DNA from: Patescibacteria group bacterium
GTDB taxonomy: Bacteria; Patescibacteriota; Patescibacteriia; UBA2196
Assembly: GCA_028748975.1 (NCBI GenBank)
Contig: JAQTPI010000002.1
Location: 1-49,212 of the forward strand
DNA: 49,212 nt
Direction of reading: 5' to 3'
The notes beneath the pieces were generated by a model. The model was given only the letters and a program-made list of their open reading frames with translations. It made no database searches and was not told the origin of the DNA. Both the position numbers and the translations under genes were made by a program. Below, piece after piece: positions 15,857 through 47,469 of this stretch (positions within the stretch are counted from its first letter, which is position 1; every line of letters starts with the position of its first letter).

Positions 15857-17047
15857 ATGAAACGAATATATTTTGACCACGCGGCGACGACGCCGGTTGA
15901 TAAAAAAGTAATGAAGGCGATGAAGCCGTATTTTTGCGATGTCTTTGGCAACCCGTCTTCACTCCATTCTTTTGGCCAAGAAGCGATGAAAGCAGTGGAC
16001 GAAGCGCGCAACAAGGTTGCTAAGTTTTTGAATTGCGACCGGGAAGAAGTAATTTTTACCAGCGGAGCGACCGAGGCAAATAACCTTGCAATACGAGGGG
16101 TACTGAAATCAGAAATTAGAAATCAGAAATCAGGAACAGACAATAAACTACATGTTATAACTACAGCGTTTGAACATCCGGCGGTTTTAGAAACGGTGAA
16201 AGATTTGGAAAAATCTGGTTTAATCGAAGCGAGCTATGTGATGCCGGGCGCTGATGGAATAGTGAAAACTGAAGATATTGAGAAAGAAATCAGAGATAAC
16301 ACAATTTTAGTTTCGGTGATGTATGTGAATAATGAAATTGGAACGATTCAGCCAATTAAAGAAATTAGCGAAGTTATCAAAAGAATGAATGAGGGCCGGC
16401 CGAATAAAATTTTATTTCACATCGACGCGGTGCAAGCGGCACTTTATTGCGAGATGAAAGTTGGGGAATTGGGCGTGGATTTGCTTGCCATGTCCGGACA
16501 TAAAATTTACGGGCCGAAAGGCATTGGCGTTTTGTATGTTAAAAAATCAGTAAAATTAAAACCAATCCAAACTGGCGGGCACCACGAGTTTGGACTTCGC
16601 GCGGGAACTTTGAATACGCCGTTAATTGCTGGTATGGGTCGGGCAGTAGAATTAATTAAAAAAAGAAACACCAAGAAAGTGGCGGAATCGCGCGATTATC
16701 TTTGGACTAAATTGCAAAGAAATATTTCCGGAATTAAATTGAATGGCGAGATGGTGCGCCGAGTGCCCAGTAATTTGAATGTCAGTATTTTGGGAGTGGA
16801 AGGCGAGGCACTTTTGCTTGGACTGGATATGGAAGGCATTGCCATTTCCACCGGTTCGGCCTGTTCTTCGGGGTCCTTGGAGCCATCACATGTTTTGATG
16901 GCGATTGGTTTAAGCCATGAGGAAGCGCACGGCAGTTTGCGGATTACTTTGGGCGAAGAAAACAATGAAAGCGAATGCGATGAATTGATAAAAAAATTAA
17001 CGCCCTTGGTGGAGCGTTTTAGGCAAATGGCGCCGAAAACAGAATGA
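15857..17047 (+). CDS. iscS: Cysteine desulfurase (IscS/NifS group I)
   Basis: YFDHAATTP, SGHKIYGPKG (PLP Lys), STGSACSSGS. Confidence 0.95.
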   Translation: MKRIYFDHAATTPVDKKVMKAMKPYFCDVFGNPSSLHSFGQEAMKAVDEARNKVAKFLNCDREEVIFTSGATEANNLAIRGVLKSEIRNQKSGTDNKLHVITTAFEHPAVLETVKDLEKSGLIEASYVMPGADGIVKTEDIEKEIRDNTILVSVMYVNNEIGTIQPIKEISEVIKRMNEGRPNKILFHIDAVQAALYCEMKVGELGVDLLAMSGHKIYGPKGIGVLYVKKSVKLKPIQTGGHHEFGLRAGTLNTPLIAGMGRAVELIKKRNTKKVAESRDYLWTKLQRNISGIKLNGEMVRRVPSNLNVSILGVEGEALLLGLDMEGIAISTGSACSSGSLEPSHVLMAIGLSHEEAHGSLRITLGEENNESECDELIKKLTPLVERFRQMAPKTE

Positions 17048-17107: not shown

Positions 17108-17884
17108 CTAGGCGCTAAGTAACTGTTTAAATTCTTCTTCATACATGTCGGCCAATTCGGAAGAGATTTCAGGCAGGGCGTTGGATTTTTCGGCAACCCA
17201 AACCATTTGTTGGTCGGTTTTAGAAAATATTTTTGGATAATCCTGGAGCAGAGCGCCAAAGCCCGCTCCTTTTTTTATTTGATTGGCCATGTCAAAAAGT
17301 GTTTGGCGATAGGCGCGATTTTTTACGGCTCTGGCAGTAATGTTTAGGGCGAACACTTGAGGAACACCCATTTTTAAGAGGCAAGAGAAAACGCGCCAAA
17401 AGCGGGCGGAATTTTCTTTTTGGGCGGCGCGTTTGTTGAAAAAACGAGTAAGCGCGGCGCGGCGTTTGGCCGAATTGAGCCGTTGTTCTTTTTGGAGAAG
17501 TAGAGCCAATTGCTGGAAAGAGTTTTTTAGATTATCATTTTCTTCACCAGCCGCGATAAGGCTGATAAAAATTTCGTCAAAAATTTTTGGATAGTTTTTA
17601 AGTGTGCCAGAAAGAGGTTTGCCGGCGTCTAGGTTTTTAAGGACGTCGGCTATAATTTTTTTAAGGGCGCGAGCGGGGGTTTGTTTTTCCAAAGCCGCGA
17701 GCGCTTTTTTCAAGGGCAGTTCGGCTTTGAGCATGGTGGCAAGGTGTTGAACCAGATAGATTTTTTGCGCCAAAGACACCTGCCCATAAATTTTGGCGGG
17801 AATTGGTTCGCGGCCGCCAACAGTTCTTTTTATGAGCGGCATAATTTCAACGGTCTGTTTTTTGATTTTATTATTGATTGACAT
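17108..17884 (-). CDS. pilC: PilC/GspF family protein, internally shortened
   Basis: Two GspF-like repeats (LATMLKAELPL...AAGEENDNL; LLKMGVP...VAEKSNAL) but no hydrophobic TM stretch. Confidence 0.75.
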   Translation of the reverse strand: MSINNKIKKQTVEIMPLIKRTVGGREPIPAKIYGQVSLAQKIYLVQHLATMLKAELPLKKALAALEKQTPARALKKIIADVLKNLDAGKPLSGTLKNYPKIFDEIFISLIAAGEENDNLKNSFQQLALLLQKEQRLNSAKRRAALTRFFNKRAAQKENSARFWRVFSCLLKMGVPQVFALNITARAVKNRAYRQTLFDMANQIKKGAGFGALLQDYPKIFSKTDQQMVWVAEKSNALPEISSELADMYEEEFKQLLSA

Positions 17885-17971
17885 GAAAAATTAGATATGC
17901 TAAATTATATTTGTTCATTTCACAACCAGGTAAAGGCCTCTGGGCCAAAAGGAGGAATGGTGAAAGAGATT
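17878..17971 (+). promoter_or_regulatory. 94-bp promoter/leader/RBS unit, copy 1
   Basis: TTGACA-17-TG-TAAATT, leader, AGGAGG, ATGGTGAAAGAGATT; near-identical to 18429-18522. Confidence 0.85.
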
Positions 17972-18387: not shown

Positions 18388-18421
18388 TCTCCGTTTCGGT
18401 CAAACCGAACGGGGATTTTTA
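18388..18421 (+). terminator. Intrinsic terminator, copy 1
   Basis: CCGTTTCGGT-CAA-ACCGAACGG + T tract; repeated at 18932. Confidence 0.7.
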
Positions 18422-18428
18422 TTATCGC

Positions 18429-18522
18429 TTGACATGAAAAATCAGGTATGCTAAATTATATTTGTTCATTTCACAACCAGGTAAAGGCCTCTGGGCCAAA
18501 AGGAGGAATGGTGAAAGAGATT
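18429..18522 (+). promoter_or_regulatory. 94-bp promoter/leader/RBS unit, copy 2
   Basis: Direct repeat of 17878-17971. Confidence 0.85.
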
Positions 18523-21174: not shown

Positions 21175-21297
21175 CTGTAGCCTCCTTTTTGGTTAAATTG
21201 TTTTTTTTCTTGTAATTTAAGCGTAGCATGAGGCGAAAAGAGAGTCAAGTGGTAATTTTGTTTTTATGCTTTAATGCTAACATGCTAAAATGTTTTT

Positions 21298-21996
21298 ATG
21301 CTTCAACCAAATCCAGGCAAGAATTTAGAAATAGAAGTTAGGGGCAAGGTTTTTTGGCGTTATCCGATTAAGACAAAAATTATTACCAAAGATGATAAAT
21401 TGGAAGATGTAATTAAAGAATATGTGATGCCGCATTATGAAAAAGGGGATATTGTAGCGATGTCAGAAAGAATGGTGGCAGTGACGCAGGGAAGATTAAT
21501 CCATGAAAGTGAAATCAAGGCAAGCGGACTCGCAAAGTTTTTGGTGAAGTTTGTAAAAAAATGGCCCAATGACCCGGGTTTTCGGAATGCCAAAAAAATG
21601 CAGGTGGCGATTAATATGATTGGGGTGCCGCGCATGCTTTTGGCGGCATTTGTTTCGGCCATAACCAAGCCATTTGGCATTCGCGGTTTATTTTATAGAA
21701 TTTGCGGACATGGAGTTTCGGAAATTGATGGCTTTGCGCCGGGCACAATTCCACCGTATGACCAATACGCGGTTTTGGGGCCGGAAAATCCGCGCGGAGT
21801 TTGTAATAATTTGGCAAAAAAATTCGGCGTGGAAGCGGTGATTGTGGATGCCAATAATATTGACGTGGCAATACTCGGCACGAGCGATAATTTATCAATC
21901 ATGCCAGCTGAATTTCGTTTGGCTTTTTTGGATAATCCGATTGGGCAGGGCTTGGAGCAAACGCCGATTTGTATAGTCAGAAGGAAAATTGTATAA
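21298..21996 (+). CDS. F420-0:gamma-glutamyl ligase (CofE)-like domain protein
   Basis: YPIKTKII, AMSERMVAVTQGR, IVDANNI, IGQGLEQTP motifs. Confidence 0.75.
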   Translation: MLQPNPGKNLEIEVRGKVFWRYPIKTKIITKDDKLEDVIKEYVMPHYEKGDIVAMSERMVAVTQGRLIHESEIKASGLAKFLVKFVKKWPNDPGFRNAKKMQVAINMIGVPRMLLAAFVSAITKPFGIRGLFYRICGHGVSEIDGFAPGTIPPYDQYAVLGPENPRGVCNNLAKKFGVEAVIVDANNIDVAILGTSDNLSIMPAEFRLAFLDNPIGQGLEQTPICIVRRKIV

Positions 21997-22423: not shown

Positions 22424-22511
22424 GGTGCCTCCTTTTTAGATTAAATTGTTAGTTTCTTTATTTGTAATTTAAGCGTAGCATGAGGTGAAAAAGGAGTCAA
22501 GTGGAATTTAT

Positions 22512-22737
22512 GCTACTTTCTTTAGACAAAGAAAGTAGCTGAAAGAAACTGGCTCGCGAGCTGCGCGTTAGAGAAAATCAGGCTCGCCGTCGCTAATTTC
22601 CGAACTCGGTCCGATTCTGTCGTCTGCTGACTCCAGAATTGAGACCTCAAACAGGCGGAAATTTTCTTAACTGCGGTCAAGAACCGCTCCTGCTCGCCTT
22701 GATTTTCTAACTAACGCTCCGCTAAGCTCGCGCTGAC
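22512..22737. ncRNA. ~225-nt structured repeat, copy 1 (ncRNA or MITE-like element)
   Basis: Aligns with 36740-36965; nested stems with compensatory changes; transcription not shown. Confidence 0.55.
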
Positions 22738-22800
22738 CAAATCACAATAATCACAAGATGATTATTAGAAATTGAAAATTGAAAATTACAAATTAACTTT

Positions 22801-27127: not shown

Positions 27128-27294
27128 TTTTGTTTTTCTCCTTGTTTGTGATTGTGTGTTTAGTATATCATATTTAAAAATTATTGTCAAGCGATTTTTG
27201 GGGATAATTTTCGGAAAATGCCAAATTTTGGCTAAGATTAGCGGAAATTTAGCCACGAATTAATGCGAATTTAGGGCGAATTTTGCGAATAATT

Positions 27295-27410
27295 ACAACC
27301 CCTCTGTTCCGCTGTTGCGGAACACCTCCCCTTCGAAAGGGGAGGATAGCGACGCGGTTATCCCCTCCTTTCGAAGGAGGGGTGGCCGATAGCAATCGGC
27401 CGGGGTGGTT
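27295..27410. repeat. Pair of oppositely oriented CCCCTCC-family elements
   Basis: 27295-27348 and 27358-27410; similar pair at 42304-42427. Confidence 0.85.
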
Positions 27411-27463
27411 GTAATTTGCGTAAAATCGCGTATAAACTCGCGTGGAATCGCGATTATAAAGAA

Positions 27464-29407
27464 ATGAAAAAAATAAAATTCACAATCAACGGCAAAGAAT
27501 ATTTCGCGAAAAAAGGCGAGACGGTTTTGGATGTGGCTTTGCGCGAAAAAATTGAAATTCCACATTTGTGCAAGCATCCGGATCTGAAAATCAAAGGCAA
27601 CTGCCGGATGTGCTTGGTGGAGGCAGGCGGCCAAATTACCACCGCTTGTTCCACCGAAGTTCTGCCCGATTTGACAATCAAAACCAACACTAAAGAAGTG
27701 GAGCGCGGACGAAAAATAAATTTGGAATTGATTTTTTCCGAACACATTGAAAAATGTCCGACCTGCCTTTACCAAGACAATTGCACAATTTTAAAATATG
27801 CCGCCAAATATAATGTAAAAATCGCGCGGTTTGAAGACCGCAAGAAAAATTTTCCGGTTTGGCAGTTTTCCGATTCCATCCAATTTGATTCTTCCAAATG
27901 TATTGATTGCCGCAATTGCGAAGAGGTTTGCCGCGAAAAACAAGCGTGCAGTTTTTATGAAATTACGGAAGATAAGGGGGAAGACCAAATTATAAAACCC
28001 AAAGGGGAAGCAAACGGAAATCAGAAATTAGAAACCAGAAATCAGGGGGTAGACTTGTTAAAAAACGATCCGAATAAATTTGACTGCACCTATTGCGGGC
28101 AGTGCGTGACGCATTGTCCGGTCGGCGCCATTGCCGGTGTGTCGCACTGGCAGGCAGTGGAAAAATTATTACAAAATAAAAATGGCAAGGTTTTGATAGC
28201 GGAAATCGCGCCGTCAATTCGTGTTTCCATTGGCGAAGAATTCGGACAAGATTACGGCAAAATTATGACGGGACAATTGGCCGCTTCCATGAAAGCGCTT
28301 GGTTTTGATTATGCTTTTGATGTTAATTTGGGCGCGGATTTTACCACCTATGAAGAAGCTAAAGAATTGGTTAAATGGATTACCGAAGATAAACCGCGGC
28401 CGATGTTCACTTCCTGCTGTCCAGCTTGGGTGAAATTCGTGGAATTTTTCTATCCCGAATTTATTTCGCATTTAACTTCTGCCAATTCCCCTCACATGTG
28501 TTCCGGCCCGGTGATTAAAACTTTTTTTGCCGATTATTTGAAAAAAGACCCGCGCGATATTGAAATTGTTTCCATTATGCCTTGTACTTCCAAAAAACAC
28601 GAAATTGGTTTAGAAAAGCATCGAATTGATTTGGGCTGGTGTCTGGAACGGCTGGACTTGCCAAATATCGCCAGTGTTTGCCAAAGCCGCGGCGGATTGG
28701 CGGGGATTAAAGTGCCGGCGGTGGACCATATTTTGACCACGCGCGAATACGCATTTCTTTTGCATAAAAATAAAATTGATTTGCCAAATTTGAAACCAAT
28801 TGATTTGGACAGGCCACTCGGCGTGTCTTCCGGCGCCGGCGCGATTTATGGCGCTTCGGGCGGGGTCATGGAGTCCGCGCTCCGCAGCGCCGATTATTTT
28901 TTCCGTGTTTTAGACGAAACCGGTTCACTTGACCCGGTCATTAAGGGTGAAAATTATAAATTAAAGAAGAAAAGATTTTCTAAAATTTCTCAAAGCCGGA
29001 TTGAATTCAGAGAAGCGCGGGGACAGGCGGGAATTAAAACCGCACGCGTGAAAGTTGGGGGCAGAAAGTTAAATATCGCGGTGGCCAATGGCTTGGGTAA
29101 TGCCAAGAAAATTTTGGAAGATTTGAAAGCCGGCCGCGTCAAATATGATTATGTGGAGGTGATGGCCTGTCCCGGCGGCTGTATTGGCGGCGGAGGACAG
29201 CCGATTCCGACCAACGCGGAAATCAGAGCGAAGCGAGCGGCGGCTTTATATGAAATTGATAAAAATTTGCCAGTGCGCACGGCGCATGAAAATCCCAGTG
29301 TTTTGGAGGTTTATAACAAATATTTCAAAGGCGATGAAGAATTAATTGAGCATGTTTTGCATTCTAAGTTTAAAGTAAAGGAGCGCGAAGGTTACAAAGA
29401 GGTGTAG
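27464..29407 (+). CDS. hydA: [FeFe]-hydrogenase catalytic subunit (group A, M3-type architecture)
   Basis: 2Fe-2S (HLC..GNCRMC..TAC), HxxxCxxCxxxxxC, two 4Fe-4S (CIDCRNC, CTYCGQC), H-cluster motifs TSCCPAW, MPCTSKKHE, EVMACPGGCIGG; start moved to ATG at 27464. Confidence 0.93.
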   Translation: MKKIKFTINGKEYFAKKGETVLDVALREKIEIPHLCKHPDLKIKGNCRMCLVEAGGQITTACSTEVLPDLTIKTNTKEVERGRKINLELIFSEHIEKCPTCLYQDNCTILKYAAKYNVKIARFEDRKKNFPVWQFSDSIQFDSSKCIDCRNCEEVCREKQACSFYEITEDKGEDQIIKPKGEANGNQKLETRNQGVDLLKNDPNKFDCTYCGQCVTHCPVGAIAGVSHWQAVEKLLQNKNGKVLIAEIAPSIRVSIGEEFGQDYGKIMTGQLAASMKALGFDYAFDVNLGADFTTYEEAKELVKWITEDKPRPMFTSCCPAWVKFVEFFYPEFISHLTSANSPHMCSGPVIKTFFADYLKKDPRDIEIVSIMPCTSKKHEIGLEKHRIDLGWCLERLDLPNIASVCQSRGGLAGIKVPAVDHILTTREYAFLLHKNKIDLPNLKPIDLDRPLGVSSGAGAIYGASGGVMESALRSADYFFRVLDETGSLDPVIKGENYKLKKKRFSKISQSRIEFREARGQAGIKTARVKVGGRKLNIAVANGLGNAKKILEDLKAGRVKYDYVEVMACPGGCIGGGGQPIPTNAEIRAKRAAALYEIDKNLPVRTAHENPSVLEVYNKYFKGDEELIEHVLHSKFKVKEREGYKEV

Positions 29408-29857: not shown

Positions 29858-30448
29858 ATGTCAATAGCTACAACTTTATCCAAAATTCGAGTTGGTTATC
29901 TGATTAAATTTATTTTACTTCTGGCGCTGGCTACTGGCGCGCCGATTTTGGGGATTCATTCGCAGTGGCTTACCGGACCGATTGTTAATATGGCTTTAAT
30001 TTTAAGCGTGTTTTTGGTCGGCGTGCGCGGGGCGGTTTTAATCGGGCTTTTGCCTTCCACCATCGCACTTGGCACGGGACTTTTGCCAGCGGCGCTCGCA
30101 CCCATGGTGCCTTTTATTATTATTTCAAATATAATTTTAGTATTTTGTATTTCTTTTTTCCGTCATTCCGAGGGAGGTCCGATGAATATCGGACCGACCG
30201 ATGGAATCTCGGTTGAAGACCCCATCGCTTCGCTCGGGATGACGAATAAAAAATACTGGCTTGGTTTACTTTTTGCCGCCGGCCTGAAATTTCTTTTCCT
30301 TTTCCTAACTTCCGGTATCGTGATAAAATTACTGTTGAATCAAAAGCTCGCGCTCCCCGTGGCACAAATGATGAGCTGGCCCCAGTTTTATACCGCGCTT
30401 ATTGGTGGAATTTTAGCGTTTGTGGTTTTGAAAATTTTAAAAAAATAA
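29858..30448 (+). CDS. ECF transporter S-component-like membrane protein with an in-frame element insertion
   Basis: QWLTGPIVNMAL...PFIIISN...KF.FLF...QFYTALIGG pattern of S components. Confidence 0.75.
   Translation: MSIATTLSKIRVGYLIKFILLLALATGAPILGIHSQWLTGPIVNMALILSVFLVGVRGAVLIGLLPSTIALGTGLLPAALAPMVPFIIISNIILVFCISFFRHSEGGPMNIGPTDGISVEDPIASLGMTNKKYWLGLLFAAGLKFLFLFLTSGIVIKLLLNQKLALPVAQMMSWPQFYTALIGGILAFVVLKILKK
30161..30244. repeat. GTCAT...ATGAC element, 84 bp, in frame in the ECF S-component gene
   Basis: Translates as RHSEGGPMNIGPTDGISVEDPIASLGMT. Confidence 0.9.
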
Positions 30449-31078: not shown

Positions 31079-31169
31079 TTACAGCTCCTTCCTTTTTTGG
31101 CTCAATTGAGCCGTTATTGTGAGTTGTTTATATGGTTGTGATTTTTAAGTATAGCATGTTTAATTTTTT

Positions 31170-32450
31170 ATGTCAAATCCGAAAATTAAGTCCATAAAAG
31201 CAATTAAAAATCTGAAAAATAAAACAGTGCTTGTGCGCTGTGATTTTGATGTTCCGTTGAAACAACAAACAACAAACAACAAACAACAAACGACAAAAAA
31301 GTCGTCAGTTGTAAGTTGTAAGTTGTCGGTTGCTGACGACTCGCGGCTGCGGGCGGCAACTCCGACGATAAAATATCTTTTATCAAAAGGCGCGAGAGTG
31401 GTTTTGATGGGACACCTTGGCAGACCGGGCGGAGTGGTGAAAAAGGAATTGTCACTTTTGCCGGTGAAAAATCGATTGGGAAAATTACTTGGTGAGAAAA
31501 TAAGTTTTATATCTGACGAGATCCCATCGCTCGCTACGCTCGCTCGGGATGACGGTCGGTTGATAATGTTGGAAAATCTGCGCTTCAATCCCGGCGAGGA
31601 GAAAAATGACCCTAAATTTGCCAAGAAATTGGCGAAATTGGGCGATATTTATGTTAATGAGGCCTTTGCCGTCTCGCACCGAAGCGCGGCTTCGGTGGAC
31701 GCCATAAAAAAGTTTTTGCCATCTTATGCCGGTTTGAATTTGGAGCAGGAAATTTTACATCTGTCGGCGGTTCTAAACAAACCGCAAAAACCAATGGTGG
31801 CCATCATCGGCGGCGCGAAGATTGAAACTAAACTGCCAATGATCAAACAATTTTTGAAATCCGCGGATTACATTTTAATCGGCGGGGGAGTGGCGAATGA
31901 TTTTTTGAAAGCAAGGGGTTATGAGATTTATGGGTCGTTGGTGGACGATGATTATATAAATGAAGCCGGTAAAATATTAAAGAAATCAGAAATCGGAAAT
32001 CAGAAATCAGGAGAAGCAAAGTTAATTTTGCCAATAGATGTTGTTTGGTCTGACAATAAAATCAGGAGTTTATCCGCCGGAGCGTCTAAAGGGACGCCGG
32101 GGAGCGCAGGCGGAAAAACTCCAAAAATTTTGGATATCGGGCCGAAAACAATTTGGTTGTTTAGTGGTATAATTAAGAAAGCCAAGACGATTGTCTGGAA
32201 CGGTCCCATGGGCTATTTTGAAGACAAAAAATTTGCAACGGGCACAGAGAAAATAGCTGAAGTAATTTTGGCTAATAAAAAAGCGCAAAGAATAATTGGT
32301 GGTGGTGAAACAGGGGAAGTAATACAAAAAATAATCAGAAATCAGAAATCAGAAATTAGGAAAAATATTTTTATTTCCATTGGTGGTGGCGCCATGCTAG
32401 AGTATCTTGGAGGTAAAAAATTACCCGGATTGGATAAATTAATTAAATAG
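31170..32450 (+). CDS. pgk: Phosphoglycerate kinase (four repeat-derived segments)
   Basis: VRCDFDVP, HLGRP, LENLRF, GGAKIETK, WNGPMG, GGGET, SIGGGA. Confidence 0.96.
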   Translation: MSNPKIKSIKAIKNLKNKTVLVRCDFDVPLKQQTTNNKQQTTKKSSVVSCKLSVADDSRLRAATPTIKYLLSKGARVVLMGHLGRPGGVVKKELSLLPVKNRLGKLLGEKISFISDEIPSLATLARDDGRLIMLENLRFNPGEEKNDPKFAKKLAKLGDIYVNEAFAVSHRSAASVDAIKKFLPSYAGLNLEQEILHLSAVLNKPQKPMVAIIGGAKIETKLPMIKQFLKSADYILIGGGVANDFLKARGYEIYGSLVDDDYINEAGKILKKSEIGNQKSGEAKLILPIDVVWSDNKIRSLSAGASKGTPGSAGGKTPKILDIGPKTIWLFSGIIKKAKTIVWNGPMGYFEDKKFATGTEKIAEVILANKKAQRIIGGGETGEVIQKIIRNQKSEIRKNIFISIGGGAMLEYLGGKKLPGLDKLIK

Positions 32451-32453
32451 TTT

Positions 32454-32614
32454 TGTCATTCCGACCGAAGCCAGAACGATAGAGAGGGCGGAGTGCCCGC
32501 CCGAACGACTGACGTTGTTCAGTCGGGCGGGGAGGAATCCCTTATATTTCCCATATGAGATAGGCGAAGGGATCCCTTGGCTCTAAGCGACCCTAAAGGC
32601 CGTTCGGGATGACA
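32454..32614. repeat. GTCAT...ATGAC element carrying a nested 36-bp hairpin (32496-32531)
   Basis: TGTCATTCCG...CGGGATGACA termini; CCCGCCCGA...TCGGGCGGG inside the left arm. Confidence 0.88.
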
Positions 32615-32624
32615 ACTACTTTAT

Positions 32625-33914
32625 ATGAAAAAATTTGTTATAGAAAAAATCACCGCTCGTGAAATTCTTGATTCGCGCGGCAACCCGACAGTGGAAACCA
32701 CGGTGATTTTGGATTGCGGAATTAAGACTAAAGCCTCGGTGCCTTCCGGCGCTTCCACTGGGGAGCATGAAGCGTTTGAATTGCGCGATAATGACAAAAA
32801 AAGATACGGCGGATTGGGAGTTTTGAAAGCGTGCGCCAGCGTGGAAAAAATCAGCCGTAAATTAAAAGGCATGAATATTTTGGAGCAGAAAAAAATTGAC
32901 GAAGCCATGATTGAACTTGATGGTACGGATAATAAATCTAAATTCGGCGCCAACGCAATCTTATCAGTATCATTGGCTTGCGCCCGCGCCGGAGCACTGG
33001 TGGCGGGAGTAGAACTTTATGAATATTTGCGGAAGATTTACGAATTACGAATTACGAATTACGAATTACCAATCCCAATGTTCAACATTTTTAACGGCGG
33101 CAAACACGCGGACACAAATTTGAATTTGCAGGAATTCATGATCGTGCCGATTGGCCTTAAGAATTTTTCCGAGCAACTTCGCGCGGGGGCGGAAATTTTT
33201 CATGCTTTGGGCGAGGTCTTGAAAAAAAACCATCTGGATACTGATGTGGGCAATGAGGGTGGTTACGCGCCAAACATTGATAACACTATGCAGGCGTTTG
33301 ATTTAATTATGGAAGCGATTGTAAAGGCCGGCTATAAACCTGGCGCGGAAGTGGCACTGGCGCTGGATGTGGGCGCTTCGGAATTATATGATGAAGAAAA
33401 ACGGCTTTATACTTTTGATTTAGATGATTATTATCTTATGGCTTCGCAATTAATTTCCCTTTATCGCGATTGGGCGACAAAATATCCGATTATTTCCATT
33501 GAAGACGGGCTCGCGGAAAATTCTTGGGAAGATTGGGAGGAATTGACCAAAGAATTTGCGCGTTTCAAACCGCACGCCAGTTTTGATAAAATGTTACTCG
33601 TGGGCGATGATTTTTTTACTACCAATGCCAAACGGCTGGAAGCCGGCGTAAAAAGAAGCGCGGGCAACGCGGTAATTTTGAAACCAAACCAGATTGGGAC
33701 TTTGTCAGAGGCGATTGAGTTTGCCAAAGTTGCCAGAGAAAATAATTATACGATTGTGGTGAGCCACCGTTCCGGTGAAACCTGCGATGATTTTATTGCG
33801 GATTTGGCGGTGGCGATTAGTTCTGAGTTTGTAAAATTCGGGTCGCTGTCGAGGGGGGAGAGGGTAACGAAGTATAATCGGCTGTTGGAGATTTTTTCAG
33901 TAGTGTTATTCTGA
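32625..33914 (+). CDS. eno: Enolase
   Basis: REILDSRGNPTVE, VPSGASTG, ILKPNQIG, SHRSGET; stop supplied by an element half. Confidence 0.97.
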   Translation: MKKFVIEKITAREILDSRGNPTVETTVILDCGIKTKASVPSGASTGEHEAFELRDNDKKRYGGLGVLKACASVEKISRKLKGMNILEQKKIDEAMIELDGTDNKSKFGANAILSVSLACARAGALVAGVELYEYLRKIYELRITNYELPIPMFNIFNGGKHADTNLNLQEFMIVPIGLKNFSEQLRAGAEIFHALGEVLKKNHLDTDVGNEGGYAPNIDNTMQAFDLIMEAIVKAGYKPGAEVALALDVGASELYDEEKRLYTFDLDDYYLMASQLISLYRDWATKYPIISIEDGLAENSWEDWEELTKEFARFKPHASFDKMLLVGDDFFTTNAKRLEAGVKRSAGNAVILKPNQIGTLSEAIEFAKVARENNYTIVVSHRSGETCDDFIADLAVAISSEFVKFGSLSRGERVTKYNRLLEIFSVVLF

Positions 33915-35000: not shown

Positions 35001-36668
35001 ATGAAGAAAAAAATAAAAGACAAAAATAACCACCCCTCCGCCAGCTGGCGGACCCTCTCCTTAAAAAGGAGAGGAGGAAAAAAGCAGCCGCCGGTAGTTT
35101 TGGCGATTTTGGATGGCTGGGGAATTAATCATGATTACATTGGTAACGCCATTACGCGCGCCAAAACCCCGACCTATAAAATGCTTTTGGAGAAATTTCC
35201 CAATACCAAACTGCGCGCTTCGGGCCGAGCAGTTGGTTTGCCGCCAACTCAAGACGGCAATTCGGAAGCAGGGCACCTGAATTTGGGCGCTGGTCGGGTG
35301 GTGGAGCAGGATACGGTCATTATCTCAAAATTGATTACCGCCGGAACTTTTTTTAAGAATCCGGCACTGAAAGCGAGCATCAAACAGGTGAAAAAGTATA
35401 AAAGCAAGGTCCATCTCATGGGCTTGCTTTCGGGCTGGGAATCCGCCCATACTGACCCTGATCATCTTTTGGCGCTGTTAACTTTTTATCGCCAAGAAGG
35501 AATAAAAAAGGTTTATTTGCATCTTTTCACCGATGGTCGCGATTCTTTTCAATATGGCGCCTTAAAATTTTTAAAACAATTAGAAAATGAATTTAAAGAC
35601 GGGGAGGTGATCGCGAGCGTCACGGGCCGTTATTACGCCATGGACCGGACGAAAAAATGGGAACGCACGGAGGCGGCTTACAATGCGCTGGTTTTGGGCA
35701 AAGGGCAATATTATGCCAAAAGCGCGGAAGAAGCCATCAAACGGGCCTATGACCGCGACGAGACCGATGAATTCATTTTGCCGACCGTGATTGTTAAAGA
35801 TGGCAAATGTGACAAAAGAGGAATTTGCATCAGCGGCGAACCAATCGCCAAAATCGAAGACAATGACGCGGTGGTGTTTTTCAATTTGCGGTCCGACCGT
35901 TCGCGGCAATTGTCCAAAGTTTTTGTCCAAAAGAATTTTAATGATCTGAACCCCGGTGCTTTCAAACGCACCAAGGTTTTGAAGAATTTACTTTTTGTTG
36001 CCATGACTGATTTTGGCCCGGATTTGGACACCATTCTTTCTATTTCACCCTCGCAGGATGTTAAAGAAACTTTGCCCATGGCGCTGACTGGTTTGCGCCA
36101 GCTCTACATCGCGGAGACGGAAAAATATGTTCACGTGACTTATTTCTTTAATGGTGGTTATGCCGAACCGGTTAACAAGGAAGAACGTTTAATGGTATCC
36201 TCGCCCGATGTTTCTTCTTATGATAAAATACCAGAAATGTCAGCTAAAGAAATTACCGATATAATTTTAAATGATTTGAAGAATAATAAATATGATTTCA
36301 TTTTGGTAAATTATGCCAACCCCGATATGGTTGGCCACACCGGCAATTTGGCTGCCGGGATTAAAGCCTGCGGCTTTGTTGATGGTTGTTTAGGGAAACT
36401 TTATGAAGAAATTAAAAATAAAAAAGGGATGCTTTTGGTGGTGGCGGACCATGGCAACGCGGAAGAAATGATTGATGAAAAAACCGGCGAGATTGATACC
36501 CAGCACTCCTCTTATCCGGTGCCGTTTATTATTGCTGATCTGCGTGATGGCGTGAAAAGATATAAATTAAGAAAGGATGGAATTTTGGGCAACGTGGCGC
36601 CGACAATTTTGGATTTGCTAAATAAAAAGAAACCAAAGGAAATGACGGAGGGTTCTTTGGTTTTGTAG
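35001..36668 (+). CDS. gpmI: 2,3-bisphosphoglycerate-independent phosphoglycerate mutase, copy 1
   Basis: ILDGWG, GNSEAGH, FTDGRD, GRYYAMDR, ETEKY, NPDMVGHTG, ADHGNAE. Confidence 0.95.
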   Translation: MKKKIKDKNNHPSASWRTLSLKRRGGKKQPPVVLAILDGWGINHDYIGNAITRAKTPTYKMLLEKFPNTKLRASGRAVGLPPTQDGNSEAGHLNLGAGRVVEQDTVIISKLITAGTFFKNPALKASIKQVKKYKSKVHLMGLLSGWESAHTDPDHLLALLTFYRQEGIKKVYLHLFTDGRDSFQYGALKFLKQLENEFKDGEVIASVTGRYYAMDRTKKWERTEAAYNALVLGKGQYYAKSAEEAIKRAYDRDETDEFILPTVIVKDGKCDKRGICISGEPIAKIEDNDAVVFFNLRSDRSRQLSKVFVQKNFNDLNPGAFKRTKVLKNLLFVAMTDFGPDLDTILSISPSQDVKETLPMALTGLRQLYIAETEKYVHVTYFFNGGYAEPVNKEERLMVSSPDVSSYDKIPEMSAKEITDIILNDLKNNKYDFILVNYANPDMVGHTGNLAAGIKACGFVDGCLGKLYEEIKNKKGMLLVVADHGNAEEMIDEKTGEIDTQHSSYPVPFIIADLRDGVKRYKLRKDGILGNVAPTILDLLNKKKPKEMTEGSLVL

Positions 36669-36739
36669 TTTTTCTTTCGCCACCTTTTTTAGTAAAAGGT
36701 GGCGCCAAAAAGCGCCGCCAGCAAAAAAGTGATTCCTAC

Positions 36740-36965
36740 GCCACTTTCTTTGGACAAAGAAAGTGGCTGAAAGAAACTGGCGAGCGAGCTGCGCGTTAGA
36801 GAAAATCTAAGGCTCGCCCTCGCTAATTTCCGAACTCAGCCGAAGAGAATAATCTGCTGATTATTCTTTCGGCTTCAAACAGGCGGAAATTTTTTCTACT
36901 GCGGTAGAAAACCGCTCCGTCTCGCCTTGATTTTCTTGCTAACGCTCCGCTAGGCTCGCAGCTAC
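36740..36965. ncRNA. ~225-nt structured repeat, copy 2, preceded by an extra P1-like hairpin at 36679-36712
   Basis: Aligns with 22512-22737. Confidence 0.55.
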
Positions 36966-37030
36966 GAAGTCGCAATAATCGCAGTAATTCCTTGAGTTTT
37001 GTTTTAATGCTTTAATGTTAAAATGCTAAT

Positions 37031-38617
37031 ATGAACGACAATTTACAACCTAAATTTCCCAAGCCAGTGGTGCTAGCCATTCTTGACGGCTGGGGCATTG
37101 CGGCGCCGTCGGTGAGCAATGCCATTTCACAGGCCAAGACGCCGAATTTTGATAAATTGACCGCCAATTATTTTTGTACCACCCTTCAGGCCTCGGGTCT
37201 TTCCGTAGGTCTGCCTTATGGTGAAATGGGCAATTCGGAAGTGGGCCATTTGAATTTGGGCGCGGGCAAAATTGTTTATCAAAATTTGCCGCGCATCAAT
37301 CGCGCCATTTTGGACGGTGAGTTTTTTGATAATGTTATTTTTTTGAAAGCTTTGGCGCAAGTTAAAAAACAAAAAAGCAAATTGCATCTTTTGGGACTAA
37401 TTTCCACTGGTGGCGTGCACGCCTCGCTTGACCATCTTTACGCGCTTTTGGAATTGGCTAAAAAACAGAAGATAGAGAAAGTTTTTGTTCATTGTATTTT
37501 GGATGGTCGTGACATGGCCTATAATTCGGGCCAGGGATTGTTGCAAGAATTAAAAAATAAAATGAAAGAAATCGGGGTGGGCGAGATTGCTTCGGTCGTT
37601 GGCCGATTTTATGCCATGGACCGCGACAATCATTTTGAAAGAACGGAAATTGCTTACCGGCTTTTAACCGACGGGTCGGCGGAAAAAAGAACCAAAGATG
37701 TTTTGCAGTCGGTGCAGGAATTTTATGATACTAAAATTTATGATGAAGAAATGAAACCGATTGTGGTGGTTAATGAAAATGATGAGCCAATTGGCAAAGT
37801 TGAGAATAAAGACGCGGTTATTTTTTTTAATTTTCGGCCAGATCGCGCGCGGCAATTGACCAAGGCTTTCGTTTTGCCTGGCTGGGAAAAATTCACCAGG
37901 ATTTATCTGCCGGATCTGTATTTTGTAACCTTGACACAATATGAAAAACAATTGCCTTCGGAAGTGGCTTATCCGCCGGAGACGGTGAAAGAAACCTTGG
38001 CGCAGGTTTTAAGCGAGCAGGGTTTGAAACAGCTGCGCCTGGCAGAAACGGAAAAATACGCGCATGTCACCTATTTTTTTAATGGCGGAAAAGAGGAAAA
38101 ATTGGTTGGCGAGGAAAGAGAAATGATCCCGTCTTTGCGCGTGGAGTCATACGCGGAAAAACCAGAAATGTCGGCCCTCACCATTAAAGAACGGGCGCTG
38201 AAAGAGATAAATGCCAAAAATTTTGATCTGATCACGCTTAATTTTGCCAATCTGGATATGGTGGGGCACACCGGCGATATGAAAGCGACCATTAAGGCGA
38301 CGGAAATAGTTGATAAATGTTTGGGTGAATTGGCAGCGGCAACTTTAGCGGCTGGCGGTATTTTAATTGTTACTGCTGACCATGGCAACGCGGAAGAATT
38401 GATTAATACTAAGACCGGGGAAATTGATAAAGAGCATTCATGCTCGCCGGTGCCGTTTGTTTTAGTTGGTGAAAATTATAAAACACATTCGGAAGGGGGA
38501 GTGATTAATTTGTCGCTGTTGACGCCGGCTGGAGTTTTGGCTGATGTGGCGCCGACGATTTTGAAAATTATGGGATTGGAGCAGCCGAAGGAGATGACAG
38601 GACGGAGTTTGGTGTAA
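37031..38617 (+). CDS. gpmI: 2,3-bisphosphoglycerate-independent phosphoglycerate mutase, copy 2
   Basis: ILDGWG, GNSEVGH, GGVH, LDGRD, ETEKYAHVT, NLDMVGHTG, ADHGNAE. Confidence 0.96.
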   Translation: MNDNLQPKFPKPVVLAILDGWGIAAPSVSNAISQAKTPNFDKLTANYFCTTLQASGLSVGLPYGEMGNSEVGHLNLGAGKIVYQNLPRINRAILDGEFFDNVIFLKALAQVKKQKSKLHLLGLISTGGVHASLDHLYALLELAKKQKIEKVFVHCILDGRDMAYNSGQGLLQELKNKMKEIGVGEIASVVGRFYAMDRDNHFERTEIAYRLLTDGSAEKRTKDVLQSVQEFYDTKIYDEEMKPIVVVNENDEPIGKVENKDAVIFFNFRPDRARQLTKAFVLPGWEKFTRIYLPDLYFVTLTQYEKQLPSEVAYPPETVKETLAQVLSEQGLKQLRLAETEKYAHVTYFFNGGKEEKLVGEEREMIPSLRVESYAEKPEMSALTIKERALKEINAKNFDLITLNFANLDMVGHTGDMKATIKATEIVDKCLGELAAATLAAGGILIVTADHGNAEELINTKTGEIDKEHSCSPVPFVLVGENYKTHSEGGVINLSLLTPAGVLADVAPTILKIMGLEQPKEMTGRSLV

Positions 38618-42175: not shown

Positions 42176-42303
42176 CTTTCACCTCCCCTTATTTTGTTGT
42201 TTTTTGGTCTAAATAAGCCAGATTTGGTTGGTCGTTTGTGGATAAATTTTATTATCTATTTCAATTATAGCATGTTTATTTTTTTGTGTCAAATGTCCGT
42301 TGG

Positions 42304-42427
42304 TTATCCCCTCCTTTCGAAGGAGGGGTGCGAGCCAGCAGGCGAGTGGGGTGGTTGTGGTTTGTATTTTTTTACAACCCCTCCGTTCCGTTGCTACGGA
42401 ACACCTCCCCTTCGAAAGGGGAGGATA
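42304..42427. repeat. Pair of CCCCTCC-family elements
   Basis: 42304-42356 and 42374-42427, near-identical to the 27295-27410 units. Confidence 0.85.
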
Positions 42428-42492: not shown

Positions 42493-43227
42493 ATGTTAGA
42501 ACGCCTGCAAAAAATTTTAGCTCGTCAGGGGATTGCTTCTCGCCGCGGGGCGGAGGAGCTGATTTTGGCTGGAAAAATTAAGGTGAATGGCAGGATAGCA
42601 AAAATAGGAGAAAAATATGATGAGGAAGAGGATGAAATTGAGGTGGATGGGAAGAAGCTAATGAAAAATGAAAAACGAAAAATGAAAAATAATGGAAATT
42701 CAAATTTTGTATACTATTTACTTAATAAGCCACGCGGTTATGAATGTTCTTTGGTAGCTCGCCACGGCGATAAATTGGCAGTGGATTTGGTGCCGAAATT
42801 TCCCAGAGTTTGGACGGTTGGCCGGCTGGATAAAAATAGCCGCGGACTACTCATTTTAACTAATGACGGCAAACTGACTGAAGAATTGACGCACCCGAAA
42901 TTTGAACACGAAAAAGAATATGAAGTATTGGTGAATAAACCATTGACTAATGATTTTTTTCGCCGAATGCAAAAAGGCGTGGCACTTTCCGAAGGGTTGG
43001 CGCGCGCCGACAAAATCCGCCAGCTCGGAGATAAGAAATTTTCTTTAACTTTGCATCAGGGCTGGAAAAGGCAGATTAGAAGAATGTGCGAAAGTTTGGG
43101 GTATCGGACGATTGATTTGGTGAGGGTGAGGGTGGGGAAGTGGAGGCTTGGAAATTTACGCGAAGGTAAGTTTCGCAAGATTAATGGGTGTCATCCTGAG
43201 GAGCGAGAGCGACGAAGGATCTCGTAG
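42493..43227 (+). CDS. RsuA/RluB family rRNA pseudouridine synthase
   Basis: S4 domain ERLQKILARQGIASRR, LNKPRG, GRLDKNSRGLL (catalytic Asp), RQIRRMC; start moved to ATG at 42493. Confidence 0.93.
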   Translation: MLERLQKILARQGIASRRGAEELILAGKIKVNGRIAKIGEKYDEEEDEIEVDGKKLMKNEKRKMKNNGNSNFVYYLLNKPRGYECSLVARHGDKLAVDLVPKFPRVWTVGRLDKNSRGLLILTNDGKLTEELTHPKFEHEKEYEVLVNKPLTNDFFRRMQKGVALSEGLARADKIRQLGDKKFSLTLHQGWKRQIRRMCESLGYRTIDLVRVRVGKWRLGNLREGKFRKINGCHPEERERRRIS

Positions 43228-44486: not shown

Positions 44487-44573
44487 ATTTATTTGACACC
44501 TAAATACAGATGTATTAAAATGAATAATAGAATACAATTTAATGCCAACATGTTAAAATGCTAAAAAGTTTTT

Positions 44574-46256
44574 ATGGCTTTATCTACATCAGCTAAAAAT
44601 CGCTATAAATTAACGGCCATCATCGTTTTGGCCGTCTTTTGCGGTTTAGTTGCTTATTATAAGGATATGCCCGCGGGCACGCCTTTGGAAAAATTTTGGA
44701 ACAGCACTAAATACAAATTGGGCCTGGATTTGCAAGGCGGCACACACCTTGTTTATCAGGCAGATACTTCTAAAATTGAAGCCCGCGATCAGGCTTCGGC
44801 GGTAGAAGGCGTGCGCGACGTGATTGAGCGCCGCGTCAATGCCTTTGGCGTGTCCGAGCCGGTGGTGCAAACCAATAATGTCGGCGGTGAATATCGCGTG
44901 ATTGTGGAGTTGGCTGGCGTTAAAGACGTCAAACAGGCAATTGACATGATTGGCAAGACGCCACTTTTGGAATTTAAGGAACAAAACCCAAACTATAATC
45001 CGGATCTAACACCGGCGGAACAAAAACAAATTGATGATTACAATAAAGACGCGGAAAAACGCGCGCAGGATATTTTACGCAAGGTTTTAGTACCGGGCGC
45101 CAATTTTGAAAATTATGCTAAACAATATTCTGAAGACGCCGGTTCCAAAGATTCAGGTGGCGATTTGGGTTTTGCCAAGCGCGGACAGTTTGTGACCGAA
45201 TTTAATAATGAACTTTTTGATGTTTTAAAGGACGGACAAATTGGCCGGACTTTGGTCAAAACTTCTTTTGGCTATCATATTATCAAAAGAATTGAATCAC
45301 GGGGCGAGGGTGAAAATTTGGAAGTCCACAGCGAACATATTTTAATTAAAACCGAAAACGCGGAAGCGGTGAAACAAGCAAAAGATGCTTGGGTCAACAC
45401 GCAGCTTTCCGGCCGTCATTTGAAGCGCGCGGAGTTGCAATTTGACCAGCAAACTGGCGAGCCGCAGGTGGCTTTGGAATTTAATGACGAGGGTAAAGCG
45501 CTTTTTGCCGCCATTACCGAACGCAATGTGGGCAAACCAGTGGCGATATTTTTGGATGGTACCGCCATCTCCGTGCCCACAGTCAACGAACCGATTACGG
45601 AAGGCAAGGCCGTGATTACCGGACGCTTTGATGTCAAAGAAGCCAAGCAATTGGTGAATAATTTAAGCGCTGGCGCTCTGCCCGTGCCAATTACTTTAAT
45701 GTCGCAGGAAACAGTCGGAGCATCGCTTGGTCAAGAATCACTGGATAAAAGTTTATTTGCTGGCTTGATTGGTATTTTGGCCGTGGCCCTATTTATGATT
45801 ATTTTTTATCGTTTACCTGGTATTTTTTCAGTTTTGGCTTTAATAGTTTATACTTTGATCAACTTGGCGATTTATCAAATTTTTGGAATTACTTTGTCTT
45901 TGGCCGGCATAGCTGGCTTTATTCTCTCTGTCGGCATGGCCGTGGACGCGAACGTTTTGATTTTTGAACGCATGAAAGAAGAGATTCGCGCGGGCCGTGA
46001 ATTGACTTCAGCCACGGAAGAAGGTTTCAAACGCGCTTGGACTTCCATTCGCGATTCCAATGTTTCTTCTTTAATTACTTGCGCGGTTTTGTATTTCATC
46101 GGCACTTCGGTCGTGAAAGGTTTTGCTTTAACCCTTGCCATTGGCGTTTTGACTTCCATGTTTTCGGCCATCACCGTGACGCGCACATTCTTGAAAACAA
46201 TTATTAATATAAAAAGAGTCAGAGAAAGCCATCGGTTGTTTGGAGTAAAAAAGTAA
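44574..46256 (+). CDS. secD: Protein translocase subunit SecD with an embedded PpiC/rotamase domain
   Basis: LGLDLQGG, RRVNAFGVSEP, parvulin-like SEDAGSKDSGGDLG...FGYHII, GMAVDANVLIFER. Confidence 0.96.
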   Translation: MALSTSAKNRYKLTAIIVLAVFCGLVAYYKDMPAGTPLEKFWNSTKYKLGLDLQGGTHLVYQADTSKIEARDQASAVEGVRDVIERRVNAFGVSEPVVQTNNVGGEYRVIVELAGVKDVKQAIDMIGKTPLLEFKEQNPNYNPDLTPAEQKQIDDYNKDAEKRAQDILRKVLVPGANFENYAKQYSEDAGSKDSGGDLGFAKRGQFVTEFNNELFDVLKDGQIGRTLVKTSFGYHIIKRIESRGEGENLEVHSEHILIKTENAEAVKQAKDAWVNTQLSGRHLKRAELQFDQQTGEPQVALEFNDEGKALFAAITERNVGKPVAIFLDGTAISVPTVNEPITEGKAVITGRFDVKEAKQLVNNLSAGALPVPITLMSQETVGASLGQESLDKSLFAGLIGILAVALFMIIFYRLPGIFSVLALIVYTLINLAIYQIFGITLSLAGIAGFILSVGMAVDANVLIFERMKEEIRAGRELTSATEEGFKRAWTSIRDSNVSSLITCAVLYFIGTSVVKGFALTLAIGVLTSMFSAITVTRTFLKTIINIKRVRESHRLFGVKK

Positions 46257-47192: not shown

Positions 47193-47440
47193 CTAGTAAT
47201 AAGTAATAAAAAATAACGAAAATAAGGAAATAGGGATATAAGGAAATAAAGTTATTTTTATTTTATTATTTAATTAGTCACCGTTTTATGGTGGCTTTTT
47301 TTATTTTCCAAAAATACCATTATTTTTGTTATACTATAATGCGTTGATCGTCGCATATGATATAACACTTTTTAGCTTTTTTTCGGTTTTGTATTTTTAT
47401 GTTTTAATGCTTTTATGCTTTAATGTTAAAATGATTTTAT

Positions 47441-47469
47441 TTGACACCAAAAACTATATCTGGTATACT
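47441..47469 (+). promoter_or_regulatory. Sigma70-type promoter upstream of the sigma-like gene
   Basis: TTGACA, 17 bp, TATACT. Confidence 0.6.

Follow-up and report, generated by a model that had tools for sequence, protein, structure and literature searches.

Repeat-derived segments in five surface loops of the phosphoglycerate kinase of a Patescibacteria bacterium

Short repeat DNA in a core glycolytic gene

The phosphoglycerate kinase gene (pgk) of an uncultured Patescibacteria (candidate phyla radiation, CPR) bacterium carries five in-frame segments of repeat-derived DNA, which together amount to 223 nt, or 17.4% of the gene, and sit in surface loops of the encoded enzyme (PGK). The gene is located on contig JAQTPI010000002.1 (assembly GCA_028748975.1), the first 49,212 nt of which were analysed and are referred to here as the window (G+C content 40.5%). 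The segments are 28-75 nt in size and comprise both tandem arrays of heptamer units and GC-rich palindromic elements, with relatives elsewhere in the genome or in the landfill metagenomes from which the bacterium appears to derive. They are probably best explained as repeat DNA tolerated in permissive loops of a functional and vertically inherited gene, where it has been subject to slippage, unit turnover and conversion. The coding sequence and the five segments (sites 1-5) are as follows.

31170-32450, plus strand: phosphoglycerate kinase coding sequence, 426 aa, assigned on PF00162, a match to 1php, an AlphaFold2 (AF2) model and dN/dS
31260-31334, plus strand: site 1, paired-array quasi-palindrome made up of (AAACAAC)5.4, a spacer and (GTTGTAA)-type units, coding for KQQTTNNKQQTTKKSSVVSCKLSVA
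31520-31553, minus strand: site 2, solo GTCAT-type half-palindrome resembling repetitive extragenic palindromic (REP) elements, read through in antisense as EIPSLATLARDD
31981-32010, plus strand: site 3, (GAAATCA)4.3 array identified by Tandem Repeats Finder (TRF), coding for KSEIGNQKSG, about 10 aa above the base state
32331-32358, plus strand: site 4, (AATCAGA)3.4 array (TRF span 32333-32356), coding for IRNQKSEIR, 5-6 aa above the base state
32066-32121, plus strand: site 5, GC-rich palindrome of 56 nt with arms GGAGTTTATCCGCC / GGCGGAAAAACTCC, coding for SLSAGASKGTPGSAGGKT

Integrity of the enzyme

The open reading frame (ORF) at 31170-32450 matches the Pfam profile PF00162 with an E-value of 2.2e-117, residues 14-416 aligning to profile positions 5-379 of 379, and its closest Protein Data Bank entry in HMMER searches is 1php, the PGK of Bacillus stearothermophilus (E 1.3e-82). 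Named database relatives belong to the Patescibacteria/CPR throughout, including Kuenenbacteria, Falkowbacteria and Parcubacteria. When compared with 118 Patescibacteria PGKs, the invariant or clade-majority residue is found at 23/23 checked binding and catalytic positions, among them the basic patch (R/H/R/R/R), the GGAK lysines, WNGPxGxFE and GGG(D/E)T. The sole departures from the canonical motifs are conservative, namely D for N in RxDFNVP (D27; common to 69/118 relatives) and E for D in GGGDT (E380; 94/118). The AF2 model, built with the 118-sequence alignment, has a mean predicted local distance difference test score (pLDDT) of 91.1 and a predicted template modelling score (pTM) of 0.89; it superimposes on 1php with TM-scores of 0.84/0.90, and its top Foldseek matches are all PGKs. 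The pLDDT dips only at residues 31-50, 111-130, 271-280, 301-320 and 391-400, which correspond to the five repeat segments. These results bear out the view of a first-pass annotation of this DNA that all catalytic motifs are kept, and the structure prediction proposed there as a check returns a PGK fold. No second pgk occurs among the 44 ORFs of at least 90 aa within the window and, judged by its motifs and predicted fold, the enzyme looks functional. A search of RNA runs for the gene gave no match.

Orthologous loci and proteins are denoted below by L and P numbers, respectively. The order hydrogenase / membrane protein / PGK / enolase is kept at every examined locus with those genes on the contig. 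In the nearest relatives a DUF5654 gene intervenes between the membrane protein and PGK, and enolase is followed downstream by a 2,3-bisphosphoglycerate-independent phosphoglycerate mutase (iPGM) gene in the window, in L003 and in L006.

It is highly improbable that the segments stem from mis-assembled repeats or that pgk is a decaying pseudogene. Logan unitigs do break at the arrays, and none covers the whole of site 1. However, the DNA of the locus is present as assembled contigs in three independent runs of one landfill-metagenome study, and these contigs match 31425-32700, 31335-32089 and 32088-32700 with zero differences, covering sites 2-5. Furthermore, the ORF is intact, dN/dS against five orthologues is 0.11-0.22 (with dS of at least 1), and homologous elements occupy the same sites in orthologues from other samples.

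Anatomy of the five segments

Site 1 falls between VPL and DDSR and consists of two arrays, (AAACAAC)5.4 at 31260-31297 (96% matches) and (AAGTTGT)4.0 at 31299-31326, which pair unit by unit with 5 bp and a 2-nt bulge each. The RNA of 31263-31332 is predicted to form a single long interrupted hairpin (-27.7 kcal/mol, z = -5.5), a value equalled by 0/200 shuffled sequences. At the protein level, site 1 adds 19 aa to a 7-residue base state and is predicted as an extended beta-hairpin (pLDDT 61-73). Its third T-rich unit is GTTGTCG, while GTTGTAA at that spot would create an in-frame TAA. The site-1 hairpin was also considered as an intrinsic terminator, a reading rejected because there is no U-tract, GGUUGCUGACGAC coming after the stem; a terminator scan found none on the plus strand at this position.

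The minus-strand sequence of site 2 is GTCATCCCGAGCGAGCGTAGCGAGCGATGGGATC (34 nt). An nhmmer profile trained on nine of the window's remaining half-elements, with the PGK copy left out, recovers it with an E-value of 2.6e-7 (26.5 bits), a match that ranks fourth in the 49 kb and first among sequences not used for training. It agrees with the copy at 15062 at 30/34 positions, and its GC content is 0.65 vs 0.40 for the rest of the gene. A short helix is predicted here at residues 121-126 (pLDDT 81-87).

The arrays at sites 3 and 4 use the same repeat unit, and the pLDDT at site 3 is 69. Site 5 is predicted to fold with -30.8 kcal/mol (z = -4.5), has a GC content of 0.62 and a pLDDT of 60-72. Copies of this 56-nt palindrome, approximately 91% identical, are found on other contigs of the three landfill runs, while none with nine or fewer mismatches occurs in the other loci analysed, where a diverged relative is seen in L156. 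The first-pass annotation had listed four segments, all of which are real: the quasi-palindrome (ACAACAA)n...(TTGTAAG)n before DDSR agrees with the TRF arrays and the strength of the hairpin, the GTCAT half-element before LENLRF with the half-element profile, and the GAAATCA blocks at 31982 and 32333 with the TRF arrays of 4.3 and 3.4 units. The palindrome at 32066-32121 was overlooked, and the count is thus five.

Dispersed repeat families in the window and in close relatives

Two classes of repeats are dispersed through the window. The first comprises tandem arrays of 7-9-nt units, typically with some 4-5 units each and often as inverted pairs forming a hairpin, and the second GC-rich GTCAT...GGATC half-palindromes, usually as inverted doublets. 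Arrays with periods of 7, 8 and 9 nt number 22, 15 and 14, respectively, vs approximately two each expected from order-2 Markov simulations. Arrays of these periods are in roughly 7-fold excess over the window as a whole, and likewise in close relatives. By contrast, the periods expected of codon repeats, 3 and 6, are almost absent from the window. Per kb, there are 0.28-0.97 such arrays in the window and the five relatives closest to it vs a median of 0 in 69 PGK neighbourhoods of other bacteria and archaea, other CPR included. Inverted array pairs forming hairpins lie between genes at, for example, 8105/8170, 14588/14637, 43243/43284 and 47211/47258; PGK site 1 is an inverted array pair of this intergenic type, inside a gene.

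As 27/51 arrays fall inside ORFs of at least 90 aa, which cover 82% of the window, arrays are approximately 4-fold denser between genes than within them. Among the Pfam-confirmed genes of the window, pgk is nevertheless the most array-dense, with 3.1 vs 0.67 arrays per kb of coding DNA (four arrays vs 0.86 expected at the coding average; Poisson P = 0.011). The description of this enzyme as a sink for repeats in the first-pass annotation is overstated, and PGK is not a unique target, since the hydrogenase, NifS, enolase, membrane protein and other genes carry the same element types and the intergenic density is higher. The elements of the neighbouring genes and the pgk-eno spacer to which reference is made below are the following.

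16105-16133, plus strand: (GAAATCA)4 array in a NifS-type aminotransferase gene, coding for LKSEIRNQKSG
28017-28045, plus strand: (GAAATCA)4 array in the [FeFe]-hydrogenase gene
30162-30243, plus strand: whole GTCAT composite in frame in a 196-aa membrane protein (ORF 29858-30448), coding for HSEGGPMNIGPTDGISVEDPIASLGMT
32455-32613, strand unspecified: composite GTCAT...ATGAC inverted-repeat element filling the pgk-eno spacer
33038-33073, plus strand: (TTACGAA)5 array in the enolase gene (32625-33914), coding for YELRITNYEL

Three-unit matches to GAAATCA with three or fewer mismatches occur in the window only at 16105, 28017, 31982 and 32331/32338, all on the plus strand (eight overlapping matches vs 0.01 expected). 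The (GAAATCA)4 array is followed by GG in three unrelated genes, and a second-unit variant, GAAATTA, is common to the arrays at 16105 and 28017. In antisense the unit has a TGA in every frame, and all four copies are in sense orientation. As 7 and 3 are coprime, three GAAATCA units code for the seven residues EIRNQKS in any entry frame.

The GTCAT class has the consensus GTCATYCCGAG...GATGGRATC, with terminal inverted repeats GTCATYCCG...CGGRATGAC. Six doublets are located at 2199-2289, 3084-3192, 7521-7686, 15062-15132, 30162-30243 and 32455-32613, and there are occasional singlets; the composite elements span 71-166 nt, with variable nested hairpins in their inner part. PGK (31520-31553) and the membrane protein (30162-30243) each contain a translated copy, and another lies at the end of an RluA-like ORF (43190-43221). 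When 2 Mb of other loci were searched with the GTCAT profile, matches were restricted to the nearest relatives. The pgk-eno spacer holds a NUDIX gene in L001, a GIY-YIG gene in L003 and other genes elsewhere. No Rfam family matched the window at gathering thresholds. The repeat-derived status that had been proposed for the PGK segments is thus supported by both the GAAATCA matches and the GTCAT profile, which place the segments in repeat families of this genome.

Orthologous loops, inheritance and turnover

Across the 118 PGKs the five sites vary widely in length, while control stretches are near-constant. The length ranges, in residues, are as follows.

Site 1: 7-32; base state of 7 in 61/118; 26 in the window
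Site 2: 10-69; median 23; 20 in the window
Site 3: 11-54; base state 11-12; 22 in the window
Site 4: 15-31; base state 15-16; 21 in the window
Site 5: 7-48; either 7 or 18-29; 29 in the window

The same loops hold different repeats in different relatives, which among the matches listed also include the close relatives L007 (55%) and L076 (59%). At site 1, L001 has (AGAGACA)4, and L003 and L005 have ACGCGGAC-type repeats; in L006 and L076 the element is that of the window, AAACAAC...AAGTTGTC(A/G)GTTGC, with the junction KLSVADD retained and a GC palindrome nested inside the element, which it interrupts. Site 3 is occupied by (AATGTCA)n in L003, (AAAGCATT)4 in L005, (AAAATCC)3 in L006 and two arrays in L007, and in L001 by AAGAATCAGAAA alone, with one AATCAGA proto-unit. 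The site 4 units, ATCAGAA in the window, GTCAAAA in L005 and L007, GTCAAAT in L006, ATGAAAA in L001 and ATCAGATT in L003, lie one to two substitutions apart, and L157 has an array of the GAAATCA type as in the window. Site 5 is deleted in L001, L003, L005 and L007, the first two of which are the closest orthologues examined as DNA, while P0021/L156 has a related palindrome whose outer arms differ yet are complementary again. P0052, P0044 and L156 are among the orthologues lacking the elements. Most of the PGK segments are therefore old occupants of fixed permissive loops common to orthologues, and not fresh insertions; some elements recur even in distant orthologues.

Similar turnover is observed at neighbouring genes. 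At the hydrogenase array site, L157 has the unit order of the window, GAAATTA-GAAACCA, while the site holds (AGAGACA)4 in L001, AAATGTC in L006 and GTCAT-type palindromes in L005 and L007, and is empty in L156. In enolase, L001 and L003 carry an (AATTATG)-type array coding for NYELGIKNYG, of the same length as the (TTACGAA)5 array of the window; this is an orthologous array in which the unit has turned over and the length is unchanged. The GTCAT doublet in the membrane protein is common to the window and L001, with an inner stem that differs by compensatory changes, and at this site L003 carries other GTCAT-type elements joined in a larger composite.

The arrays might also have a purely local origin, by in-place slippage of native A-rich stretches coding for Lys, Asn and Gln, with the recurrence of units reflecting codon or base bias. 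This would fit the single AATCAGA of L001 at site 3, where the window has four units, as well as the enolase array, which exactly fills the length of the orthologous sequence, the site 4 units of six genomes, which resemble one old array, and the lack of a mobility gene in the window. However, (GAAATCA)4 followed by GG in three unrelated genes, with the GAAATTA variant in two of them, is difficult to reconcile with independent local births, as are the 100% pure (AGAGACA)4 arrays in both the hydrogenase and PGK of L001 and the AAATGTC units at three loci of L006. Identical units make up 7.0% of array pairs within genomes vs 1.2% between genomes, a 6-fold excess computed on pairs that are not independent. 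Order-2 composition predicts approximately two arrays per period rather than 14-22, and slippage cannot yield the GTCAT half-element or the palindrome at 32066, both of which have copies elsewhere. A purely local origin is thus rather unlikely.

One further insertion was observed outside the five sites. In the L003 orthologue P0003 (3001-4239), eight residues are duplicated within the substrate-binding motif HLGRP, giving HLGRPALTRRGRPGG, at a position of constant length in nearly all other PGKs.

Replacement of a native helix at site 2

In the HMMER alignment, the site 2 peptide ISDEIPSLATLARDDG falls opposite the helix VGDEVKAAVDRLNEG of 1php, and the net length is not increased. Distant Patescibacteria PGKs keep a native motif of the DCIGxKVxxxIxxMKxGE type before LENLRF, a motif which is lost in some short orthologues (P0052, P0044). 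In the nearest approximately 20 orthologues this position is taken by GTCAT-spelled peptides (EIPS..RDD, EIPRRSAPRND, ILKQVQDD and CHPERSGAKSRD) or by heptamer-coded peptides (ITNYKI, FQIPDSQI). As distant orthologues keep the motif and the nearest ones carry repeat-coded peptides, the comparison supports site 2 as a repeat-derived segment, positionally equivalent to the native helix, that appears to stand in for it where it has been lost. The first-pass annotation had proposed such a replacement before LENLRF, which is in line with the 20 residues found here vs the clade median of 23. It had also named alignment of the segments with native sequence as grounds for abandoning its reading: site 2 does align in position with the 1php helix, but its DNA is that of a repeat-family member.

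The DNA of site 2 is unusually conserved. The window and L001 are identical at 35/36 nt, though the proportion of synonymous differences (pS) between them is 0.61, and 11/11 codons for conserved residues are DNA-identical vs 57% elsewhere (P = 0.002). L003 has a diverged copy and L005 a heptamer array instead, while the GTCAT variants of L006, L007 and L157 are different ones that agree in their ends, orientation and frame.

Such conservation raises the question of whether the elements are functional, as contingency switches in which one unit gained or lost would shift the frame and turn pgk off, as hairpins acting in mRNA or DNA (in stability, pausing or protein binding) or as lineage-specific surface peptides. 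Besides the conservation of site 2 above that of surrounding synonymous sites, such a role would accord with stems kept through compensatory changes, the strong site-1 mRNA hairpin, the continued occupation of the same loops across the clade, and unit lengths that are no multiple of three, with periods 3 and 6 almost absent, as in classical phase-variable loci. The affected genes are, however, those of housekeeping enzymes (PGK, enolase, hydrogenase, NifS) and not surface or variable genes, and the sequence, length and class of the elements change freely between orthologues, down to their complete lack in P0052, P0044 and L156. In addition, AF2 confidence is lowest exactly at the segments, the site-1 hairpin has no U-tract, and no copy-number variant was found among the landfill contigs, a comparison confined to assembled contigs. 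A functional role for the elements as a whole is accordingly considered improbable, and they appear to be tolerated or neutral rather than needed.

Origin and turnover of the segments

The anatomy, family membership, coding compatibility and comparative pattern of the segments, along with the integrity of the enzyme, are observed features, for which tolerance of repeat DNA in permissive loops of an inherited pgk is the probable explanation. The molecular mechanisms of spread and turnover may be envisaged as follows. The genome and its close relatives would have been colonised by the two classes of small repeats, both of which are commonest between genes. Within a gene, an element would survive where it changes the length by a multiple of three, is read on a stop-free strand and places its peptide in a surface loop; PGK has five such permissive loops, and in this lineage five of the five are occupied. 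Once placed, elements are inherited but evolve fast. Arrays may grow, shrink and alter their unit by slippage with homogenisation, and the loci of one genome may come to share an array unit by copying or ectopic conversion. Palindrome stems may be kept by quasi-palindrome (template-switch) correction or by selection. Between orthologues, one kind of element is swapped for another at the same site.

Several observations weigh against this explanation. The lone AATCAGA of L001 at site 3 would also fit the local birth of an array. The site-1 elements misfit the PGK neighbour-joining tree computed from repeat-free columns, in that the window and L006 share one element and L003 and L005 another, and vertical descent alone is therefore insufficient. 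The nucleotide conservation of site 2, together with the conserved stems, could point to a role of the DNA or RNA itself instead of neutrality. Finally, no transposase, REP-associated tyrosine transposase (RAYT) or reverse transcriptase is encoded among the 44 ORFs of at least 90 aa in the 49-kb window, and no direct repeats that would represent target-site duplications flank any of the six GTCAT composites, and mobility of the elements is consequently read from their dispersion.

An unlikely, but more far-reaching, explanation is that, in this clade, a directional process repeatedly places 7-9-nt arrays, specific to each genome, and REP-like palindromes in the same surface loops of core enzymes, some of these elements now being structural. 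Such re-seeding might proceed by ectopic conversion among the dispersed arrays, by template switching or some 'array-writing' activity, or by inter-lineage recombination, and the modelled helix before LENLRF in PGK would be a candidate structural recruit. If this were true, a measurable fraction of essential enzymes would be built from, and still be exchanging, selfish repeat DNA.

Comparison with known repeat systems

The closest parallel is provided by the Rickettsia palindromic elements (RPE), reviewed, after Ogata et al. 2000, in PMC3184786, of which R. bellii has 526 copies, 53 of them within protein-coding genes (PMC1458961). As in Rickettsia, dispersed palindromes of a reduced genome lie in frame in housekeeping genes, leave the gene intact, are inherited and are commoner intergenically. 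RPE are, however, 105-146-nt palindromes of a single family, while the PGK elements measure 28-75 nt and are of two unrelated kinds, one of which consists of tandem 7-9-nt arrays. In the PGK case there are also several elements per gene, at sites that are common to and exchanged across a whole clade, and the phylum is Patescibacteria. Both size and consensus differ from those of RPE, and the elements are set apart from them by description.

The GTCAT elements resemble REP, BIME and REPIN sequences in being short, GC-rich, imperfect palindromes with a conserved end, found mostly as inverted doublets. REPs are extragenic by definition, whereas several GTCAT copies are translated; the REP terminal motif is of the GTAG type, and here GTCAT; and REPs are mobilised by RAYT, a Y1 transposase, no gene for which is found among the 44 ORFs of the window. 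Contingency loci of Haemophilus, Neisseria, Campylobacter and Mycoplasma likewise have tandem repeats within ORFs whose unit is not divisible by three, a property shared by the heptamer arrays at 31260, 31299, 31981 and 32333, in which a one-unit change shifts the frame because the unit length is no multiple of three. The units of contingency loci usually measure 1-6 nt, are present in many copies and belong to surface or restriction genes, in contrast to the 7-9-nt units in 3-5 copies in core metabolism seen here. The MITEs (miniature inverted-repeat transposable elements) of Anabaena and Nostoc and the pneumococcal BOX and SPRITE elements are also non-autonomous inverted repeats that add coding sequence (PMC3184786, PMC10969869). 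The GTCAT composites have terminal inverted repeats, as MITEs do, but lack target-site duplications; the elements described here are far shorter, lie inside conserved enzymes rather than at gene ends, and have no partner transposase in the window.

Palindromic amphipathic repeat coding elements (PARCELs) similarly consist of tandemly arranged coding DNA that shows dyad symmetry and has spread within genomes; they are, however, 25-residue domains that form whole membrane or surface proteins of unknown function, and not short inserts in enzymes. The housekeeping enzymes of Plasmodium, encoded in an AT-rich genome, contain hydrophilic, poorly ordered surface-loop insertions which vary between species at conserved positions. 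These insertions are eukaryotic, codon-based Asn/Lys runs of period 3, with no dispersed 7-9-nt repeat families or palindromes. Nothing relevant to repeats in coding genes of CPR/Patescibacteria, or to the GTCAT motif as a string, was found in the literature searched.

Tolerated repeat DNA in pgk would represent a second, independent and in part more extreme case of selfish DNA in protein-coding genes, here in the CPR. Striking traits are that 17% of an essential glycolytic gene is repeat-derived, that two unrelated classes occupy the same loops, that frame-breaking 7-9-nt units are held in frame, and that orthologous sites swap elements between lineages. The main interest lies in this clade-wide, site-specific turnover and in the repeat recruited in place of a native helix. 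Such elements would help to explain the length variation and the odd low-complexity inserts in the proteins of this clade, show how much non-native sequence a conserved fold tolerates, and provide natural maps of insertion tolerance for PGK, enolase and [FeFe]-hydrogenase. They also serve as a warning that annotation and phylogenetic pipelines can take repeat segments for native sequence.

Other repeats and genes of the window

Several arrays are also found in genes for larger or membrane-bound products. The minus-strand ORF at 1146-3428 codes for a putative 760-aa protein without Pfam matches and contains several arrays as well as two GTCAT doublets, and a plus-strand gene for an STT3/PMT-like membrane glycosyltransferase (4217-5935) likewise holds several arrays. 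In these two genes the T-rich strand is read, giving hydrophobic runs such as LLIVLLLLLLLLILI and VLIVLILLTVL, while the soluble enzymes are read from the A-rich strand.

Four copies of a 36-nt motif are present, at 15651-15686, 27157-27192, 31143-31178 and 42259-42294. On its minus strand it resembles a near-consensus promoter (TTGACA-17-TATACT, 11/12, with TG), and on its plus strand it reads TTGTGA-17-TTTAAT-6-ATG; in the copy at PGK, the pgk start codon and the minus-strand -35 box overlap. The four small ORFs that accompany the motif on the minus strand were considered as a gene family, which was rejected as alignment shows no homology among them. GC-rich hairpin modules of the CCCCTCCTT..AAGGAGGGG type, the copies of which are 81-93% alike, are located at 15735-15790, 27293-27418 and 42302-42427, where they separate the 36-nt motif from the start of NifS, of the hydrogenase and of the RluA-like gene. 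Because the modules at the RluA-like gene fall inside its longest ORF, the annotated N-terminus there is probably spurious.

Octamer arrays of the form (TTTWATGY)n are found upstream of genes at 14638-14674, 21248-21300, 36989-37033, 44538-44564 and 47389-47441. Four of the five reach or end within approximately 10 nt of a start codon (NifU, the ORF at 21298, the second iPGM and SecD), with a TAAAAT-like box about 6 nt before the ATG and no Shine-Dalgarno sequence. From their sequence and position, these arrays may be tandem-repeat promoters of leaderless mRNAs.

The two iPGM genes (35001-36668 and 37031-38617) are tandem paralogues with blocks of 74-77% nucleotide identity, and L006 has the same pair. 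An intergenic module of approximately 250 nt lies upstream of both a DUF4012 gene (22509-22755) and the second iPGM (36737-36983), the copies being 83-92% identical. A 106-nt repeat (96% identical; 17866-17971 and 18417-18522) lies at the starts of two adjacent small ORFs beside type IV pilus/type II secretion system (T2SS) genes. Finally, SecD (44574-46256) contains a PPIC-type peptidyl-prolyl isomerase domain at residues 149-241, between the first P1 segment and the P1 head.

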